Positions 4,138 to 24,174 of a stretch of DNA of 30,013 bases are shown here, piece after piece. Below the pieces are notes generated by a model. The model had not been told where the DNA came from. It worked only from the letters and a program-made list of their open reading frames with translations, and did not search any database. A program made the translations under genes and the position numbers. Numbering within the stretch: the first letter of the stretch is position 1; the number at the start of each line of letters is the position of its first letter. Source of the DNA: Patescibacteria group bacterium (GTDB taxonomy: Bacteria; Patescibacteriota; Minisyncoccia; Minisyncoccales; GWA2-46-15); NCBI GenBank assembly GCA_018895125.1, contig JAHIOR010000032.1, positions 1-30,013 on the forward strand, read 5' to 3'.

Positions 4138-4170
4138 ATTTAAAAATTATTTTGATTATTATACTAAAAG

Positions 4171-4525
4171 TGGAGGCGCCGAGAGTTGCACCCGGATCCA
4201 GGAGATTTTCTCAAAGAAGATCTACAAGCTTGTCCCAATTAAAGGTTTGAAGCAGAGGATTCTAATCGGGAGAAAATCCGGCTGCCAATGTGGTTGGTTG
4301 GCTTTCGCCAATGCCAACCCGATAAAAGAACACTTTTCTCGATAAATGACACCAACCTTAATCATCGAGAATCTTTAAGGTCGATGCTGCCTTAGGTTGT
4401 TAGACAACAGCTAGAGCAGGTTGTGAAAATGAGTTGGCACTTATGTTTCCTGAAAGTTTAACGAGATTTCAGAAGACTCGGCTTGCCTTTCTTGAGAGTA
4501 ATCGCTGTCAAAGCTTGTCACCCCC
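4171..4525 (-). ncRNA. ssrA: tmRNA, one-piece, 355 nt; predicted tag (A)ANSFSQPALAVV*
   Basis: 5' GGGGGTG pairs with 3' CGCCTCC-A including G3:U70. T-arm CCGGG-TGCAACT-CTCGG; AAGCTTGTAG near the 3' end; ATAAGT precedes resume codon GCC at 4438 with TAA at 4402-4400. Lies 44 nt downstream of smpB. Confidence 0.95.
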
Positions 4526-4569
4526 GTAACACGTAACGATATATTGGGTTATATTTTTAAAAAGCTGGC

Positions 4570-5010
4570 TTAGCTGAGAAACTCTCCCATTTCTCTTTTT
4601 GCCTCCCGTTTTTTAATCACCTGCCTTTGATCAATCTTTTTGATTAGCCGCGCCAATGCAAACTCCAGCTTTATCTTACCGCTCTTAGTATATATTTTTA
4701 AGGGTACAAATGTCAATCCTTTTTGAGAGGATTTGCCCTTAAGATAAAGAAGCTCTTTTTTAGTTAAAAGCAGTTTTTTTTCTCTTTCGGAGATATGATC
4801 AGGAGCGTTTTTGGGTTGGTAAGGGGGAACATGGCAGCCGACTAGATAAAGTTCGCTGCTACCTTTAAAAATAACATAGCTGCCGGCTAAACCAACCATA
4901 CCCATTTTTATTGATTTGACCTCCTGACCCAAAAGCACCAGGCCAGCCTGATATTTTTCCAGGATTTCATAGCTGAAATTGGCTTTTCTGTTGTCAGCGA
5001 AAATCTGCAT
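4570..5010 (-). CDS. smpB: SsrA-binding protein SmpB
   Basis: NRKANFSYEILEKYQAGLVLLGQEVKSIK...R.KKLLL.KKE...GLTFVPLKIY...KLEFALAR..KK.DQR..IKKRE. Confidence 0.97.
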   Translation of the reverse strand: MQIFADNRKANFSYEILEKYQAGLVLLGQEVKSIKMGMVGLAGSYVIFKGSSELYLVGCHVPPYQPKNAPDHISEREKKLLLTKKELLYLKGKSSQKGLTFVPLKIYTKSGKIKLEFALARLIKKIDQRQVIKKREAKREMGEFLS

Positions 5011-5014
5011 GGCT

Positions 5015-5085
5015 TTATAGCGGGCGTCCCGCCCGGTATACTTTTAATTATAGCGGTTAGTAAACCGATATATCGTACTCGCTAT
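5015..5085. repeat. Structured palindromic element: partial copy 5015-5040 plus full copy 5048-5085; second full copy at 24069-24107
   Basis: TTATAGCGG-[hairpin]-CCGATATATCGTACTCGCTAT. The 21-mer at 5065-5085 is identical to 24087-24107. Confidence 0.85.
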
Positions 5086-5121
5086 TAGATATTCTAGCAG
5101 AATTGTGTTAAATTGTAAGTG

Positions 5122-6846
5122 ATGATCGGGCAAAAAACCAAAAAAATATTCAGCGAACTATTGAAAAAGCAAGCTAAGAAAGCCTTATCTGACAAAATTG
5201 ATTTGTTAAATATTGTTGTTGAATTTCCTTTGCCTGAGTTTGGCGATTATAGCCTTAATCTTGCCCTTAAGTTTTGGCAGGATTTCGGCTTCAAAAACCC
5301 TCATGAATTTGCAGTTAAAATTAAAGAGGACTTAGATCAAAACAAGCAGTTGATGAAGGTAATTTCTAAAATCCAGGTTGAAGAACCGGGATTTATCAAT
5401 TTTTGGCTTAAACCAGAGTATCTTTTAGACGTAGTCAAGGAAATAAACAAGGCTGGATCTAGGTTTGGCAGGACCAGAGAAATGAGCCAAAAGATTATGG
5501 TTGAATATGCTCATCCCAATACCCACAAAGAAATGCACATCGGCCACATGAGAACCCTAATTACCGGTGAGGCTTTGTCTAGGATTTTTGAAACAGCCGG
5601 TGCCAAGGTTTTCAGGGCAAATTACCAGGGAGATATTGGCCCTCATGTTGCTAAATCAATTTGGGGCACAATCCAGCTTTTAAAAGAGAGAAGCCAGACT
5701 TGGGAGCAATGGGAAGCAGAATCGTCATTTAAAAAGGCTCATTTGTTAGGAGAAGGATATGTCAGGGGCAACCAGGATTACGAGAGCCATAAAGAAGAGA
5801 TTGATGATTTAAATGCTGATCTTTATCAGAACAACCCCAAGGTGATGCCAATATATTTCCGAACAAGAAAATGGTGTTTAGATTATTATGATAATTTTTA
5901 CAAGAGATTTGGAACTCATTTTGACCGGCTTTTTTTCGAAAGCGAAGTGGCCGAGGAGGGCAAAAAACTGGTTTTGGCAAATCTTGGCAAAATTTTTGAA
6001 AAGAGTGACGGAGCAATTATCTTTGACGGGACAAAATATGGCTTGCACAAAAGAGTTTTTGTCACTGCCGAAGGCTATCCGACTTATGAGGGCAAGGAAA
6101 TGTATTTGGCTCAGAAGCAGCGGCAAACTTTTAAGTTTGACAAGAACGTGCACGTGGTTGCCAATGAGCAAGCGGAATATTTCAAGGTTGTTTTCAAAGC
6201 CATTGAATTGCTTGATCCTTGGTTTAAAAATAGGGAGCGTCATTTATCAATGGGCATGGTTAATTTGGTTAACCAAAAAATATCTTCAAGGCGCGGCATT
6301 GTTATTACTGTTGACGGTTTATTAGATGAAGTTAAGACCATGGCCAGGCAGTTAACAAGTTCAAGTAAAGAACTTGGTTCAGAGACAGAGGATATTATTG
6401 AAAAAATAACCTTGGCCGCAGTTAAATACTCGGTTTTAAAAGCCCATCCTACTTTAAATGTAGAATTTGATTTAAAGCGATCAGTAGACATGGATGGCAG
6501 TTCCGGACCCTATATTCAATACGTATTTGCCAGGTGCAAGAGCGTACTTGAGAAGGCGAAAGGTTCTGCTATGGTGGGTCGGGTTTTGAGCGATGAAGAA
6601 CTGGTTGTTGCCAGGTGGCTGACAAAGTTCCCAGAAATAATTTTAAGGTCAGCCGAACAAATGGCGCCAAATTTAATTTGCAGCTATCTTTTTGAGCTGT
6701 GTCAAAAGTTTAATAATTTTTATCAGAAAAATCGCATTATTGGTTCCAAAGAGGAGAGTTCCAGATTGGCATTGACCAAGGCTGTGGCTCAAGTGATTGA
6801 AAATGGGCTTTGGCTTCTTGGCATTGAGGCGCCCTCGAGAATGTAG
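5122..6846 (+). CDS. argS: Arginyl-tRNA synthetase
   Basis: FGDYS N-domain, VEYAHPNTHKEMHIGH (HIGH motif), KISSRRG, GSSGPYIQYVFARCKS, and C-terminal APSRM. ATG at 5122 is preferred over GTG at 5119. Confidence 0.97.
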   Translation: MIGQKTKKIFSELLKKQAKKALSDKIDLLNIVVEFPLPEFGDYSLNLALKFWQDFGFKNPHEFAVKIKEDLDQNKQLMKVISKIQVEEPGFINFWLKPEYLLDVVKEINKAGSRFGRTREMSQKIMVEYAHPNTHKEMHIGHMRTLITGEALSRIFETAGAKVFRANYQGDIGPHVAKSIWGTIQLLKERSQTWEQWEAESSFKKAHLLGEGYVRGNQDYESHKEEIDDLNADLYQNNPKVMPIYFRTRKWCLDYYDNFYKRFGTHFDRLFFESEVAEEGKKLVLANLGKIFEKSDGAIIFDGTKYGLHKRVFVTAEGYPTYEGKEMYLAQKQRQTFKFDKNVHVVANEQAEYFKVVFKAIELLDPWFKNRERHLSMGMVNLVNQKISSRRGIVITVDGLLDEVKTMARQLTSSSKELGSETEDIIEKITLAAVKYSVLKAHPTLNVEFDLKRSVDMDGSSGPYIQYVFARCKSVLEKAKGSAMVGRVLSDEELVVARWLTKFPEIILRSAEQMAPNLICSYLFELCQKFNNFYQKNRIIGSKEESSRLALTKAVAQVIENGLWLLGIEAPSRM

Positions 6847-20707: not shown

Positions 20708-23559
20708 TACCCTACGAACCAGAGAAAATAGAGACAAAATGGCAAGATAAATGGGAGGAACAAAAGATTTATCAAGCCATTGATGGTTCTAAAAAACAGA
20801 AGTTTTACGCCTTAATTGAATTTCCTTATCCGTCAGGGGCTGGCTTTCATGTCGGAAATGCGAGATCTTGGTTAGCCATGGACGCTTATTCTCGCAAAAA
20901 GCGGATGAATGGATTTAATGTTTTATACCCAATGGGTTGGGACGCTTTTGGCTTGCCCGCGGAAAATTATGCCCTAAAGAATAAACTCCATCCTTCTATA
21001 ACCACGGCCCAGAACATCGCCACGTTTAAGAGGCAGATTAAATCATTGGGTCTTTCTTTTGACTGGTCGCGGGAAATCAACACTACCGATCCAAAGTATT
21101 ATAAATGGACCCAGTGGATTTTTCTGAAACTATTGGAAAAAGGTTTGGCATATCGGGCGGAAACTTCGGTTAATTGGTGTCCCATTTGCAAAACTACCTT
21201 GGCCGATGAAGAGGTCTTAGCCGACGGCAGCCACGAAAGATGCGGCAAGCCGACTGAAAAACGTTTTCAAAAACAGTGGCTACTTAAAATAACTGATTAT
21301 GCCCAAAGGCTTTTGGATGATCTTAATTTAGTTGATTATTCTCAGAAAATCAGAGTCCAGCAAGAAAACTGGATCGGTAGAAGCGAAGGAGCTGAACTTA
21401 AATTTGGAATTAAAGGGACTGAATCACAAATCAATGTTTTTACAACAAGGATAGATACTATTTTTGGTGCAAGCGCTTTAGTGGTGGCGCCAGAGCATAA
21501 AATTATTAATCAATTAGAGGATCGGATAAAAAATATTGATGAAGTTAGGGGATATCAAAAAAAAGCAAAGGACAAGTCAGAACTGGAAAGAACCGATCTG
21601 GCAAAAGAAAAAACAGGAGTAAGATTAGAAGGGATAATAGCAGTTAATCCATTTAGCGAAGAAGAAATTCCAGTCTTTGCTGCTGACTATATTATGGAGA
21701 GTTATGGCACGGGCGCTATTATGATGGTGCCAGCTCACGATAATCGTGATTACGGGTTTGCTCAAAAATACAATTTGCCGATCAAAGAAGTTATTGCGCC
21801 CTATTGGCTTGATTCAAAATATCCTCCCAGGCCAGATAAGCAAACAGAGAAGCGGGAAGTGGTTACTATTATTGTCAGGAATCCGAAAGATAAAAAGTTA
21901 CTTTGTCTTAAGTGGAAGAAAGCTGATTGGCAATCATTCCCAACCGGCGGTGTTGAAAATGATGATCCAAAGACTGCCGCTAGAAGAGAGACATTAGAAG
22001 AAACCGGCTACAAAAATCTGAAATTTATTGCTCAAATTCCCGGTTCAACTTATGTGGAATTTTATCGACCTCATAAAGATTCCAATGTGTATGCCCATTT
22101 TCAATATCTTGTATTTGAATTAGAAAACGAGGAGAAAATTGATATTGAAAAAAATGAAATAAATAATCATGAGCCAGTTTGGATTTCGGAAAATGAAATA
22201 GAAAGTTTTATCAACGTAGAAAATCAATTGTTTATGTGGAGGCGTTTTAAAACTCCTGATTTGATTTATACGGGTTATGGTGTATTAATTGATTCGGGAA
22301 AATATTCAGGACTTTTCTCAGAAGATGCTTGCAATAAAATGGTTTCTTGGCTTCAGGAAAAGAATTTGGGTAATGCCACGATAAATTATAAGATGCGAGA
22401 TTGGATTTTTTCCAGGCAGCATTATTGGGGCGAACCCATTCCAGTTATTCATTGTCAGAAATGCGGAGCTGTGCCGGTCCCGGAGACAGATTTACCAGTT
22501 GAGCTTCCTTATGTTGAAAATTACGAACCTTCAGGAACAGGGGAATCTCCTTTAGCTAATATTACAGATTGGGTCAATACTAAATGTCCTCAGTGCCAAG
22601 GGGAAGCTAGAAGAGAAACAGATACTATGCCTAACTGGGCTGGATCAAACTGGTATTTTTTGCGCTATTTAGATCCGGATAACTCCCGGGAAATAGCTGC
22701 TAAGGATAAAATGAAATATTGGATGCCAGTTGATATTTATCAGGGCGGTTTTGAGCACACCACTCTGCATCTCCTTTACTCAAGATTCATCTATAAATTC
22801 CTTTATGACATTGGCGTAGTTCCCGGCCCAGAGCCTTATGCCAAAAGAAGATCGCATGGCATTGTTTTGGGTCCGGATAACAGGAAAATGTCAAAGAGCT
22901 TTGGTAATGTTGTCAATCCTGATGATATTGTCAAAAAACATGGCGCCGACACCTTAAGGCTTTACGAAATGTTTATCGGGCCGTTTGATCAGGCCGTTTC
23001 TTGGAATGAAGACAGTCTTCAAGGATGCTTTAGATTTTTGAACAGGGTCTGGAAATTGTTCCAGGAAAAGGTAAAAGAAGAGGAGACTTCCAAAGATATT
23101 TTAAGAAAACTTCACCAAACAGCGCGCAAAGTTGGTGAAGATATAGAGAATCTGAAATTCAATACCATGGTAGCTTCTTTAATGAAGTTTATTAATGAAT
23201 GGGAAAAGTCATTTCTTTCAAAAGAAGATGCTGAGCTGTTTGTAAAAATAATAGCTCCTTTGGCACCGCATTTAGCTGAAGAAGCCTGGGTTGAAATATT
23301 AAAGAACAAATTTTCAGTTCATCAGCAGCCCTGGCCTAAGTTTGACGAAAAGCTAATTATCGAAGATAAGGTTATTATGGTAATTCAGATTAATGGTAAA
23401 GTTAGGGGACAATTTGAAATGGATAATCAAGACAGTCAAGATCAGGCTAAGGTTACAGACCAGGCAAGAAAACACCCTCAGATCATTAAGTATCTTGAGG
23501 GTAAAGAAGCTAGCAAGAATATTTTCGTACCCGGAAAGCTGATTAATTTCGTTATTTAA
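20704..23559 (+). CDS. leuS: Leucyl-tRNA synthetase with a NUDIX domain inserted in the CP1 editing region
   Basis: EFPYPSG.GFHVGN, GWDAFGLPAEN, TTRIDT, GTGAIMMVPAHD, RDW.FSRQHYWGEPIP, KMSKS; insert contains GGVENDDPKTAARRETLEETGY. Confidence 0.97.
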   Translation: MIPYEPEKIETKWQDKWEEQKIYQAIDGSKKQKFYALIEFPYPSGAGFHVGNARSWLAMDAYSRKKRMNGFNVLYPMGWDAFGLPAENYALKNKLHPSITTAQNIATFKRQIKSLGLSFDWSREINTTDPKYYKWTQWIFLKLLEKGLAYRAETSVNWCPICKTTLADEEVLADGSHERCGKPTEKRFQKQWLLKITDYAQRLLDDLNLVDYSQKIRVQQENWIGRSEGAELKFGIKGTESQINVFTTRIDTIFGASALVVAPEHKIINQLEDRIKNIDEVRGYQKKAKDKSELERTDLAKEKTGVRLEGIIAVNPFSEEEIPVFAADYIMESYGTGAIMMVPAHDNRDYGFAQKYNLPIKEVIAPYWLDSKYPPRPDKQTEKREVVTIIVRNPKDKKLLCLKWKKADWQSFPTGGVENDDPKTAARRETLEETGYKNLKFIAQIPGSTYVEFYRPHKDSNVYAHFQYLVFELENEEKIDIEKNEINNHEPVWISENEIESFINVENQLFMWRRFKTPDLIYTGYGVLIDSGKYSGLFSEDACNKMVSWLQEKNLGNATINYKMRDWIFSRQHYWGEPIPVIHCQKCGAVPVPETDLPVELPYVENYEPSGTGESPLANITDWVNTKCPQCQGEARRETDTMPNWAGSNWYFLRYLDPDNSREIAAKDKMKYWMPVDIYQGGFEHTTLHLLYSRFIYKFLYDIGVVPGPEPYAKRRSHGIVLGPDNRKMSKSFGNVVNPDDIVKKHGADTLRLYEMFIGPFDQAVSWNEDSLQGCFRFLNRVWKLFQEKVKEEETSKDILRKLHQTARKVGEDIENLKFNTMVASLMKFINEWEKSFLSKEDAELFVKIIAPLAPHLAEEAWVEILKNKFSVHQQPWPKFDEKLIIEDKVIMVIQINGKVRGQFEMDNQDSQDQAKVTDQARKHPQIIKYLEGKEASKNIFVPGKLINFVI

Positions 23560-24042
23560 GCGATAACGAGTTCTATTTTAGCTCCAAGAGATTTTAATTT
23601 TTCTTCGATTTTTTCATAGCCACGATCAACTTGTTCGGCTCCAAAGACAATAGTTTTGCCTTTGGCGATGAGTCCGGCCAAGATTAGGGTAACGGTAGAT
23701 CTGATATCAGTGCCGTCAACCTTGGTGCCAAGGAGATTAGTTTTGCAGAAAATCATGGCCCGATGAGGATCAGTAATTTCAATGTCAGCTCCTATTTTAC
23801 GGAGTTCGTGTAAATGGGAAAACCGGTTTTCGTATAAGGGATCGTGAATCAAGCTTTTGCCCGTTGCTTGCGTCAAAAGCAAACAAGTCTGCGGCTGCAG
23901 ATCAGTCGGGAAGCCCGGATGAGGGATTTTAAAGCTGGAAAACCGACCCAAAAGCGGATCAGCAGCATTCTTTGATCCAGAGATCCTGACTTCTCCTTTA
24001 AGGCGCGCGCGTCCCGCCTTTAATAATGAATTTTTCCGGCAT
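23556..24042 (-). pseudogene. murA: murA remnant: N-terminus plus frameshift plus large in-frame internal deletion joined to the C-terminal ~125 codons
   Basis: ATG at 24042 gives MPEKFIIKGGTR. After 4 extra nt in a (GC)n run the sequence reads LKGEVRISGSKNAADPLL, joined in frame to PHPGFPTDLQP...YENRF...DIRS...DRGYE.IEEKL..LGA.IE. Confidence 0.88.
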
Positions 24043-24068: not shown

Positions 24069-24107
24069 TTATAGCGGGCAGGATGCCCGATATATCGTAC
24101 TCGCTAT
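24069..24107. repeat. Second full copy of the structured palindromic element
   Basis: TTATAGCGGGCAGGATGCCCGATATATCGTACTCGCTAT. Confidence 0.85.
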
Positions 24108-24153
24108 GGGAAGATAAGAGATCTTCACCTTGTCGTAAATTCAGTTTATGATA

Positions 24154-24174
24154 TATTGGACAAAGTGTCCAATA
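24154..24174. promoter_or_regulatory. Perfect 9-bp inverted repeat, candidate operator
   Basis: TATTGGACA-aag-TGTCCAATA, 25 nt upstream of the yvcK ATG. Confidence 0.55.

Follow-up and report, generated by a model that had tools for sequence, protein, structure and literature searches.

The structured motif that occurs twice in the window (the whole 30,013-nt stretch of DNA analysed here) very probably belongs to a family of non-autonomous mobile DNA elements that are ultra-small and confined to one genus. The original prediction had left a choice between a cis-regulatory RNA and a REP/MITE-like DNA element. The second reading was borne out: the motif is dispersed, is confined to one genus, varies in copy number, and is seen as a 36-nt insertion with AT duplication at three sites. 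The host genome (G000), from groundwater, comprises 632 kb in 90 contigs with 39% GC.

As shown in Table 1, both full copies in the window lie on the plus strand. They begin with ATAGCG and end with the exact 21-mer CCGATATATCGTACTCGCTAT, and their inner hairpins differ in sequence yet still pair (GGTT-AGTA-AACC and GGGCA-GGA-TGCCC), as first described. Two exact occurrences of the 20-mer CGATATATCGTACTCGCTAT were counted in the window, compared with 0.00 expected from 100 shuffles. A partial third copy had been placed at 5015-5040; it exists, and is better read as a truncated minus-strand copy without the GATATATCG box. It consists of an end repeat, the hairpin GGGCG-GGA-CGCCC and a second end repeat (ATACC-GGGCG-GGA-CGCCC-GCTAT), ends 6 nt before the smpB ATG, and on the plus strand resembles a promoter (TTTATA-17-TATACT). 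The full copies were said to lie 27-38 nt upstream of minus-strand genes. The distances are close to this (39 nt from copy 1 to the smpB ATG at 5010; 28 nt from copy 2 to the ATG at 24042), and the second gene, murA, is a remnant. The ORF from 5122 was identified as ArgRS and the gene beyond copy 2 as a member of the CofD family. Rfam returned no match at either copy at gathering or relaxed thresholds, in agreement with the original prediction, which did not recognise the motif as a known riboswitch or T-box; the sole Rfam family above threshold in the window was tmRNA (4168-4525). The matches to RNA runs were to the tmRNA of relatives only, with zero coverage over 4540-5400.

Table 1. Positions of the element copies, their parts and the neighbouring promoters in the window
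Feature	Position	Strand	Sequence	Remarks
Full copy 1	5050..5085	+	ATAGCG-GTTAGTAAAC-CGATATATCG-TACT-CGCTAT	model R1, 41.4 bits, E 1.8e-11
Copy 1, left end	5050-51 (AT)	+	AT, AGC	
Copy 1, hairpin	5055-5066	+	GGTT-AGTA-AACC	
Copy 1, box	5067-5075	+	GATATATCG	followed by TACT
Copy 1, right end	5080-5085	+	CGCT-AT	
Full copy 2	24071..24107	+	ATAGCG-GGCAGGATGCC-CGATATATCG-TACT-CGCTAT	model R1, 65 bits, E 2.3e-20
Copy 2, left end		+	AT, AGC	
Copy 2, hairpin	24076-24088	+	GGGCA-GGA-TGCCC	
Copy 2, box	24089-24097	+	GATATATCG	followed by TACT
Copy 2, right end	24102-24107	+	CGCT-AT	
Truncated copy	5017..5041	-		no GATATATCG box; model match 5017-5039, 21 bits, E 0.0009
Ancestral smpB promoter	5091..5119	-	CTTACA-17-TG-n-TAGAAT	
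argS promoter and start	5106..5124	+	TG-T-TAAATT, 7 nt, ATG at 5122	conserved
Native promoter of the cofD-like gene	24130..24157	+	TTGTCG-16-TATATT with TG	

Two further features were noted near copy 2. The MurA remnant occupies 23556-24042 on the minus strand: the ATG at 24042 gives MPEKFIIKGGTRAP followed by a stop, and a frame-shifted ORF retains approximately residues 300-420 of the intact 423-aa MurA of the relative G003 (86% identity). A distant MurA paralogue (33% identity) is encoded on contig C64 (4890-6179). Just past the promoter of the cofD-like gene, G000, G001 and G003 share the conserved palindrome TTGGACA-AAG-TGTCCAA (24154-24174), which could serve as an operator or form a 5' stem-loop and which the scan called terminator-like.

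The supposed pair proved to be 2 of about 35 copies in the genome. The 20-mer with up to three mismatches was found at 11 places in G000. A covariance model (R1) built from 11 gap-free copies detected 70 copies in G005, 35 in G000, 28 in G002, 26 in G007, 22 in G003, 6 in G001, and 1 each in G004 and G006. The copies are dispersed (1-70 per genome) and polymorphic at five orthologous loci, as expected of a MITE. The model found no copies in three genomes of two sister genera of the same family, and an exact-pattern search gave no matches in all 33 searched genomes from other genera of the order. In a search of 185,579 species representatives, multiple copies were confined to three genomes, all of the host genus (labelled Candidatus Nealsonbacteria, Candidatus Wildermuthbacteria and 'bacterium'); the remaining matches were singletons, and their count was within the range calculated for chance. 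Viral contigs contained no copies.

Looser pattern searches, which recovered about 30 copies in G000, gave the family plan AT-AGC, variable hairpin, GATATATCG, 4-5 nt and CG(C/T)T-AT. The core is 34 nt long and comprises AGC(G), a hairpin of 4-7 bp that is free in sequence, the invariant box GATATATCG, 4-5 nt and CG(C/T)T. Over 72 copies, the net element length was 33-43 nt, and multiples of three were not favoured. The best-conserved part is the perfect 10-bp palindrome CGATATATCG, which lies near promoters. Terminal inversion is restricted to AGCG/CGCT (ATAGCG/CGCTAT with the duplicated AT), and the fourth position is often mismatched. Head-to-tail tandem arrays with a period of 35-37 nt were also found, with 2-3 units before some genes; in these arrays the TAT-A at the end of one unit is the start of the next. 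Hairpin-less copies placed back to back with the CGATATATCG palindrome in common were found as well.

Some copies depart from this plan. A composite variant of 64-74 nt (G000, C14 8084-8147 and C80 5056-5130) contains an additional hairpin segment, inserted after the first hairpin and before the ATATATCG box. In several G005 copies (L052, L060), a GACCTCGCTCTAGCGAGG-CTAAGCTCTGCT module upstream of TATATATCG...CGCTAT takes the place of the usual hairpin, which suggests modular exchange between repeat families.

Comparison of filled and empty sites showed the motif to be an insertion. Three copies in G000 lie in frame within genes confirmed by Pfam, antisense to the gene. In the gene of an IscS-like cysteine desulfurase, the empty site GCCA-AT-AAAG is present in G003, whose protein is 86% identical, and in G001; in G000 it is filled as GCCA-AT-AGCG...(34 nt)...CGCT-AT-AAAG. 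A NUDIX gene is empty in G005 and G002 and reads TCT-AT-[34 nt]-AT-GAA in G000, and in the gene of an FmrO-like methyltransferase, ATT-AT-TAA of G003 corresponds to ATT-AT-[34 nt]-AT-TAA in G000. The gain at all three sites is exactly 36 nt, or 12 codons. Since an AT remains on both flanks after insertion, the AT has been duplicated, and AT was taken as the duplicated dinucleotide because only this reading gives identical ends (AGCG...CGCT) in all three cases. The AT is therefore doubled in each of the three filled/empty pairs, as in the target-site duplications of MITEs.

Both full copies in the window are lineage-specific. Copy 2 has no counterpart in the orthologous murA-cofD spacer of six relatives (G001-G006); the cofD promoter block is kept in G001, G003 and G000, and the element is present in G000 only. 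The cofD promoter lies outside copy 2, on its downstream side. Of the four relatives in which smpB and argS are still arranged in this way, three (G002, G005 and G007) lack copy 1, and the fourth, G003, has a degenerate orthologous copy. The smpB-argS spacer measures no more than 40-60 nt in G002, G007 and G005, where the smpB box TGTTAGAAT and a TGTTAAAGT-like argS box, both conserved and of the extended -10 type, lie 7-9 nt from their ATGs; in G002 and G007 the distance from TGTTAGAAT to the smpB ATG is 8 nt, which is a leaderless arrangement. In G000 the conserved block is intact (5086-5124), and one and a half elements lie between it and the smpB ATG. Through these insertions the smpB promoter is now about 80 nt from its ATG. 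The argS promoter block lies downstream of copy 1, is independent of it, and is kept in G002, G003, G005 and G007. Presence is likewise patchy at rplN-rplX, upstream of rpmE and upstream of cysS, where other species have unrelated insertions or nothing. The cysS locus of G005 reads TAAGAT-AATTCT-AT[element]ATG; without the element it is a textbook leaderless promoter (-10, 6 nt, ATG), as in four of five other species.

The tight junctions at rplN-rplX and upstream of rpmE, which contain the element in G000 or G005, carry unrelated species-specific insertions in G001, G002 and G003 (L099, L100, L102, L104), among them three tandem units of about 31 nt in G003 and GCGTCAG-type repeats in G001. 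The rplN-rplX spacer of G007 is 1 nt. G003 is the closest relative of G000, with 82-98% identity over the five proteins compared. It has 2 exact-pattern copies against 22 model matches, and lacks the element at four of five compared G000 sites. Judged from these two genomes, turnover or decay of the element would be rapid.

The original prediction had taken the covariation of the motif as a sign of selection on structure. For the inner hairpin this covariation is real. Between ATAGC and GATATATCG, 72/82 copies form a stem of 4 bp or more that is anchored at either end, compared with 2.3% of shuffles, and there were 59 distinct hairpin sequences. In a model-based alignment of 97 distinct copies, 97.6% of the cells of the 5-bp helix were paired, and double changes occurred at 5/5 pairs (66 cells), a result matched by 0/500 shuffles. 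The 97-copy alignment was fitted to the hairpin helix and favours it; the anchor-based count of 72/82 is free of such bias. The proposed terminal stem does not covary: its pair 4-99 comprised 45 G-C, 20 G-U, 4 A-U and 25 unpaired cells (94 cells in all), with A-U no more frequent than by chance. By inspection, the unpaired cells are expected to be A.C (ATAAC with CGCTAT). The CGA/TCG mini-hairpin showed no double changes in the same alignment. Single-sequence folds of the full copies were no better than those of shuffles (z -1.0 and -1.9) and did not form a three-way junction; only the truncated copy folded better than shuffles (z -3.3).

On the sense strand, hairpin imperfections were G.U (G.T) in 11 cases and A.C in about 5 (hand count), a difference that was not significant, and the hairpin may act either in RNA or in single-stranded DNA. 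Template-switch correction of quasi-palindromes is a process able to keep complementarity, and it could maintain the hairpin with no need for selection. A role as an intrinsic terminator was rejected: the stems are short and have no T-run, canonical T-run terminators occur elsewhere, and among the three copies in the window only the truncated one was called terminator-like by the scan.

The target was examined by removing each of 72 elements in silico with one AT kept. In the resulting flanks, position L-2 was a pyrimidine and R+2 a purine in 65/72 cases each, L-1 was T in 43/72 and R+1 was A in 34/72, and we infer that the target would be a palindromic Y-T-AT-A-R. Sites of this kind occur often in TATAAT -10 boxes and at T-ATG starts, and many copies therefore recreate TATAAT or ATG at their right end. 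Insertion in T-AT-AAT recreates TATAAT at the right junction and so accounts for the many ...CGCTATAAT ends, and insertion in the AT of ATG recreates CGCT-ATG. Surviving copies are mostly sense-oriented and lie 0-114 nt upstream of ORF starts, often as CGCT-ATG fusions. In G005, a long ORF starts exactly at CGCT-ATG in 17/59 copies, compared with 5 ORFs at the hairpin-side end; at five further G005 copies, rpmE and glmS included, the ORF starts 0-3 nt past the element. Fused genes recognisable by their N-termini were alaS, cysS and an apgM-like gene in G005, and rplX in G000.

In 14/72 copies a TANNNT was located 6-7 nt before the left AT, compared with 0-5 copies at other distances, and this peak fits insertion into leaderless starts. 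In G000 as a whole, TANNNT-6/7-ATG was about twice as frequent as other spacings; the excess suggests that leaderless mRNAs may be widespread in this genome. Shine-Dalgarno-like motifs before starts showed no enrichment in crude gene calls. The canonical 16S rRNA 3' end is ...CCTCCTTA; the tails of G001, G007 and G004 (L042, L043 and L045) are GGATCACTTCTTT, GGATCACCTCATT and GGATCATTACTTT, respectively, and have no CCUCC. Pairing of the conserved arm with this altered tail was considered and rejected, since the tails vary by species and complementarity by eye is at most 5 nt.

No transposase was consistently paired with the element when the RAYT and DDE families were searched in the genomes of the genus. 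Genes matching PF01797 (Y1 HUH transposase; RAYT-like), about 240 aa long and with HUH-like and YIHTNP-like motifs by inspection, are present in 7/8 genomes; G005, with the most copies (70) in an assembly that is 87% complete, has no PF01797 match. With the NCBIfam RAYT model, the RAYT-like genes of G000 scored 41.7 against a cut-off of 80. REP/RAYT systems would have the repeat beside these genes, and in G000 (C70 3098-3820, C89 6407-7141) they are flanked instead by CGTGGGAGGTC-CGA-CCTCCCACG-type and GCGGAGGAGACC-type palindromes. DDE_3, rve and DDE_Tnp_1 turn up sporadically in the genus and are absent from copy-rich G005. The autonomous partner or trans-acting transposase expected for a MITE was thus missing from these assemblies, which are 64-100% complete across the genus. 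The symmetry of the target and the 2-bp duplication point to a dimer that makes a staggered cut in both strands; the single hairpin with strand-specific arms is closer to single-strand chemistry of the REP/IS200 type.

The RAYT-like genes of G000 have repeats of their own. Each (C70 3072-3870 and C89 6377-7210) has a private palindrome, perfect and about 23 nt long, on either side, with a third copy in frame within the gene. Additional copies of the private palindromes are scattered in G000, with A-run/T-run flanks like those of bidirectional terminators.

Among known repeats, those of the MITE/REP-like kinds (Correia elements, Rickettsia palindromic elements or RPEs, and the small dispersed repeats or SDRs of cyanobacteria) are closest. 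Correia elements are about 100-200 bp long with inverted ends of about 26 bp and duplicate TA, whereas the present element has a 34-nt core, inverted ends of 4-6 nt, an AT duplication and a free-sequence hairpin. Like it, Correia/NEMIS elements, which are MITEs of Neisseria, are short and non-autonomous, with inverted ends and a 2-bp duplication; most lie immediately upstream of genes, with promoter-like junctions, and are co-transcribed into mRNAs (PMC10969869). RPEs are selfish palindromic repeats inserted in frame in housekeeping protein genes of Rickettsia, a reduced genome (PMC10969869). The three in-frame insertions in G000 genes recall them, but RPEs are about 100-150 bp long, and the present element adds 12 codons and is mostly intergenic. 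Cyanobacterial SDRs (Elhai et al. 2008, cited in PMC3116915) are reportedly imperfect palindromes of about 21-27 nt with clean intergenic and sometimes genic insertions, moved by a mechanism that is not known. Compared with SDRs, the element belongs to another phylum and has another sequence, and its AT duplication and long conserved non-palindromic arm (GATATATCG...CGCT) are its own.

REP/REPIN sequences resemble the element in being palindromic, 20-40 nt long, abundant and lineage-specific, with copy numbers that vary among relatives (PMC3733652, PMC3116915). RAYT-like genes also exist in the element's genus, as in REP/RAYT systems. However, the GTAG or CGTC tag of those systems is missing, as every aligned copy has ATAGC and GATATATCG on the two sides of its hairpin, and REPs lie mostly at gene 3' ends, whereas the copies described here lie at 5' ends. 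No target duplication is known for REPs. The element has neither the tag nor a cognate RAYT of REP/RAYT systems; with MITEs it has duplication and dispersal in common, but its inverted ends are tiny and no autonomous partner was found, and it is therefore best regarded as an unusually small form of a known kind of repeat.

Besides the missing transposase, the size of the core (34 nt) and of its inverted repeat (4-6 nt), both well under those of typical MITEs, speak against mobility. Bursts of identical copies were not seen; as nearly all hairpins differ, recent activity is deduced from species differences only. Other explanations were weighed against a mobile element. Positive selection for a function, rather than tolerance, could underlie the strong bias toward gene 5' ends and start codons. 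One such function, that of a portable promoter or leader module, is compatible with mobility and seems to us rather unlikely as the reason for the element's persistence. The element would then supply transcription-start or translation-start signals in a host without Shine-Dalgarno pairing, through the GATATATC box as a possibly bidirectional -10, the TATAAT formed at the junction and an AU-rich unstructured leader. The sense orientation of most copies 0-114 nt before ORF starts, the many ...CGCTATAAT ends and the tandem arrays before genes all agree with this, and Correia elements are a precedent for promoters on small repeats (PMC10969869). Moreover, in G005 two divergent spacers consist of a single element between two start codons (L061, and the hairpin-less L058 of 31 nt), and GATATATC is the only AT-rich -10-like sequence in them. 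On the other hand, a consensus scan found no sigma-70-like site (-35 and -10 hexamers 16-18 nt apart, the -10 having A as its second and T as its sixth base) within either full window copy; it called sites in the flanking conserved DNA, where the genus-conserved native promoters lie, and over the truncated copy. In TATATC the important T at -7 is missing, and 9-10 nt separate this hexamer from the fused ATG; variants with a 4-nt and a 5-nt spacer are fused to ATG about equally (own count), indicating that fusion is independent of -10 geometry. Copies also occur antisense within genes and at the rplN-rplX operon junction. A likeness of ACTC(G)CTATA to T7-type promoters, noted by eye, was dropped because the copies are insertions and some are inside genes; a PF00940 search of G000 gave no matches, as did the control searches.

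That the motif is a cis-regulatory RNA, a riboswitch-like three-way junction common to the smpB/argS and murA/cofD 5' regions, now seems very improbable. The compensatory changes in the inner hairpin would fit an RNA, as would the excess of G.U (11) over A.C (about 5, hand count) in the sense strand, which is not significant. But the outer helix shows no covariation and is often mismatched, the folds are not beyond shuffles and lack the junction, and no Rfam family matches. The approximately 35 copies lie before unrelated housekeeping genes and within ORFs, and the same loci in most sister species have no element while the native promoters are conserved there; the junction proposed in the original prediction was abandoned on these grounds. 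We give still less weight to the idea that the copies are operator sites of one transcription factor bound at CGATATATCG, to which hardly any probability attaches. This palindrome is perfect over 10 bp, is the most conserved part and is near promoters, as an operator would be. Against a regulon, the associated genes have no functional theme (ArgRS, CofD-like, L24, L31, a ParB-like ORF, LigA-like, AlaRS, CysRS and GlmS, several of them named by N-terminal motifs only), and the conserved unit far exceeds operator length, arrives as a 36-nt insertion and is also found in coding regions. The NrdR, Zur and CIRCE boxes do not seem to fit.

The mobile-element reading suggests how the copies could have come to be distributed as they are. 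The copying machinery would recognise structure in a single-stranded nucleic acid, and the hairpin would be kept for this reason. Selection would then retain harmless insertions: those upstream of intact promoters (as both window copies are), those in frame in protein loops, and those in sense orientation before starts. The orientation bias would in this case be a selection filter. A sense copy would place about 19 unstructured, AU-rich nt, and not the hairpin, before the AUG, which would matter for genes without Shine-Dalgarno pairing, whereas in an antisense copy the hairpin would abut the AUG. Insertion in the AT of a leaderless start codon would yield an mRNA with a 36-nt leader beginning at the element. 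A bolder form of the same reading is conceivable, if doubtful: an undescribed class of ultra-small transposons whose core is 34 nt, whose single hairpin is conserved in structure only and which duplicate AT at a palindromic YTATAR site. They would be moved by a newly linked enzyme (for example, a divergent RAYT-like HUH protein) and co-opted as a leader or start module that turns leaderless genes into leadered ones in a lineage whose anti-Shine-Dalgarno sequence is lost.

CPR/Patescibacteria genomes are usually called streamlined, yet G000, at 0.63 Mb, carries a 36-nt insertion element in about 35 copies. Insertions fall in -10 boxes, in start codons and in the loops of proteins, and turnover of the element is fast enough to differ among species whose sampled proteins are 82-98% identical, making the element a ready marker of recent genome dynamics. 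Because it resembles a covarying regulatory RNA, it also confounds the discovery of motifs and RNAs. How an element this small, with a clear target duplication, is mobilised is a mechanistic puzzle. Finally, the element offers a natural experiment on the tolerance of conversion from leaderless to leadered mRNA in genes without Shine-Dalgarno pairing.
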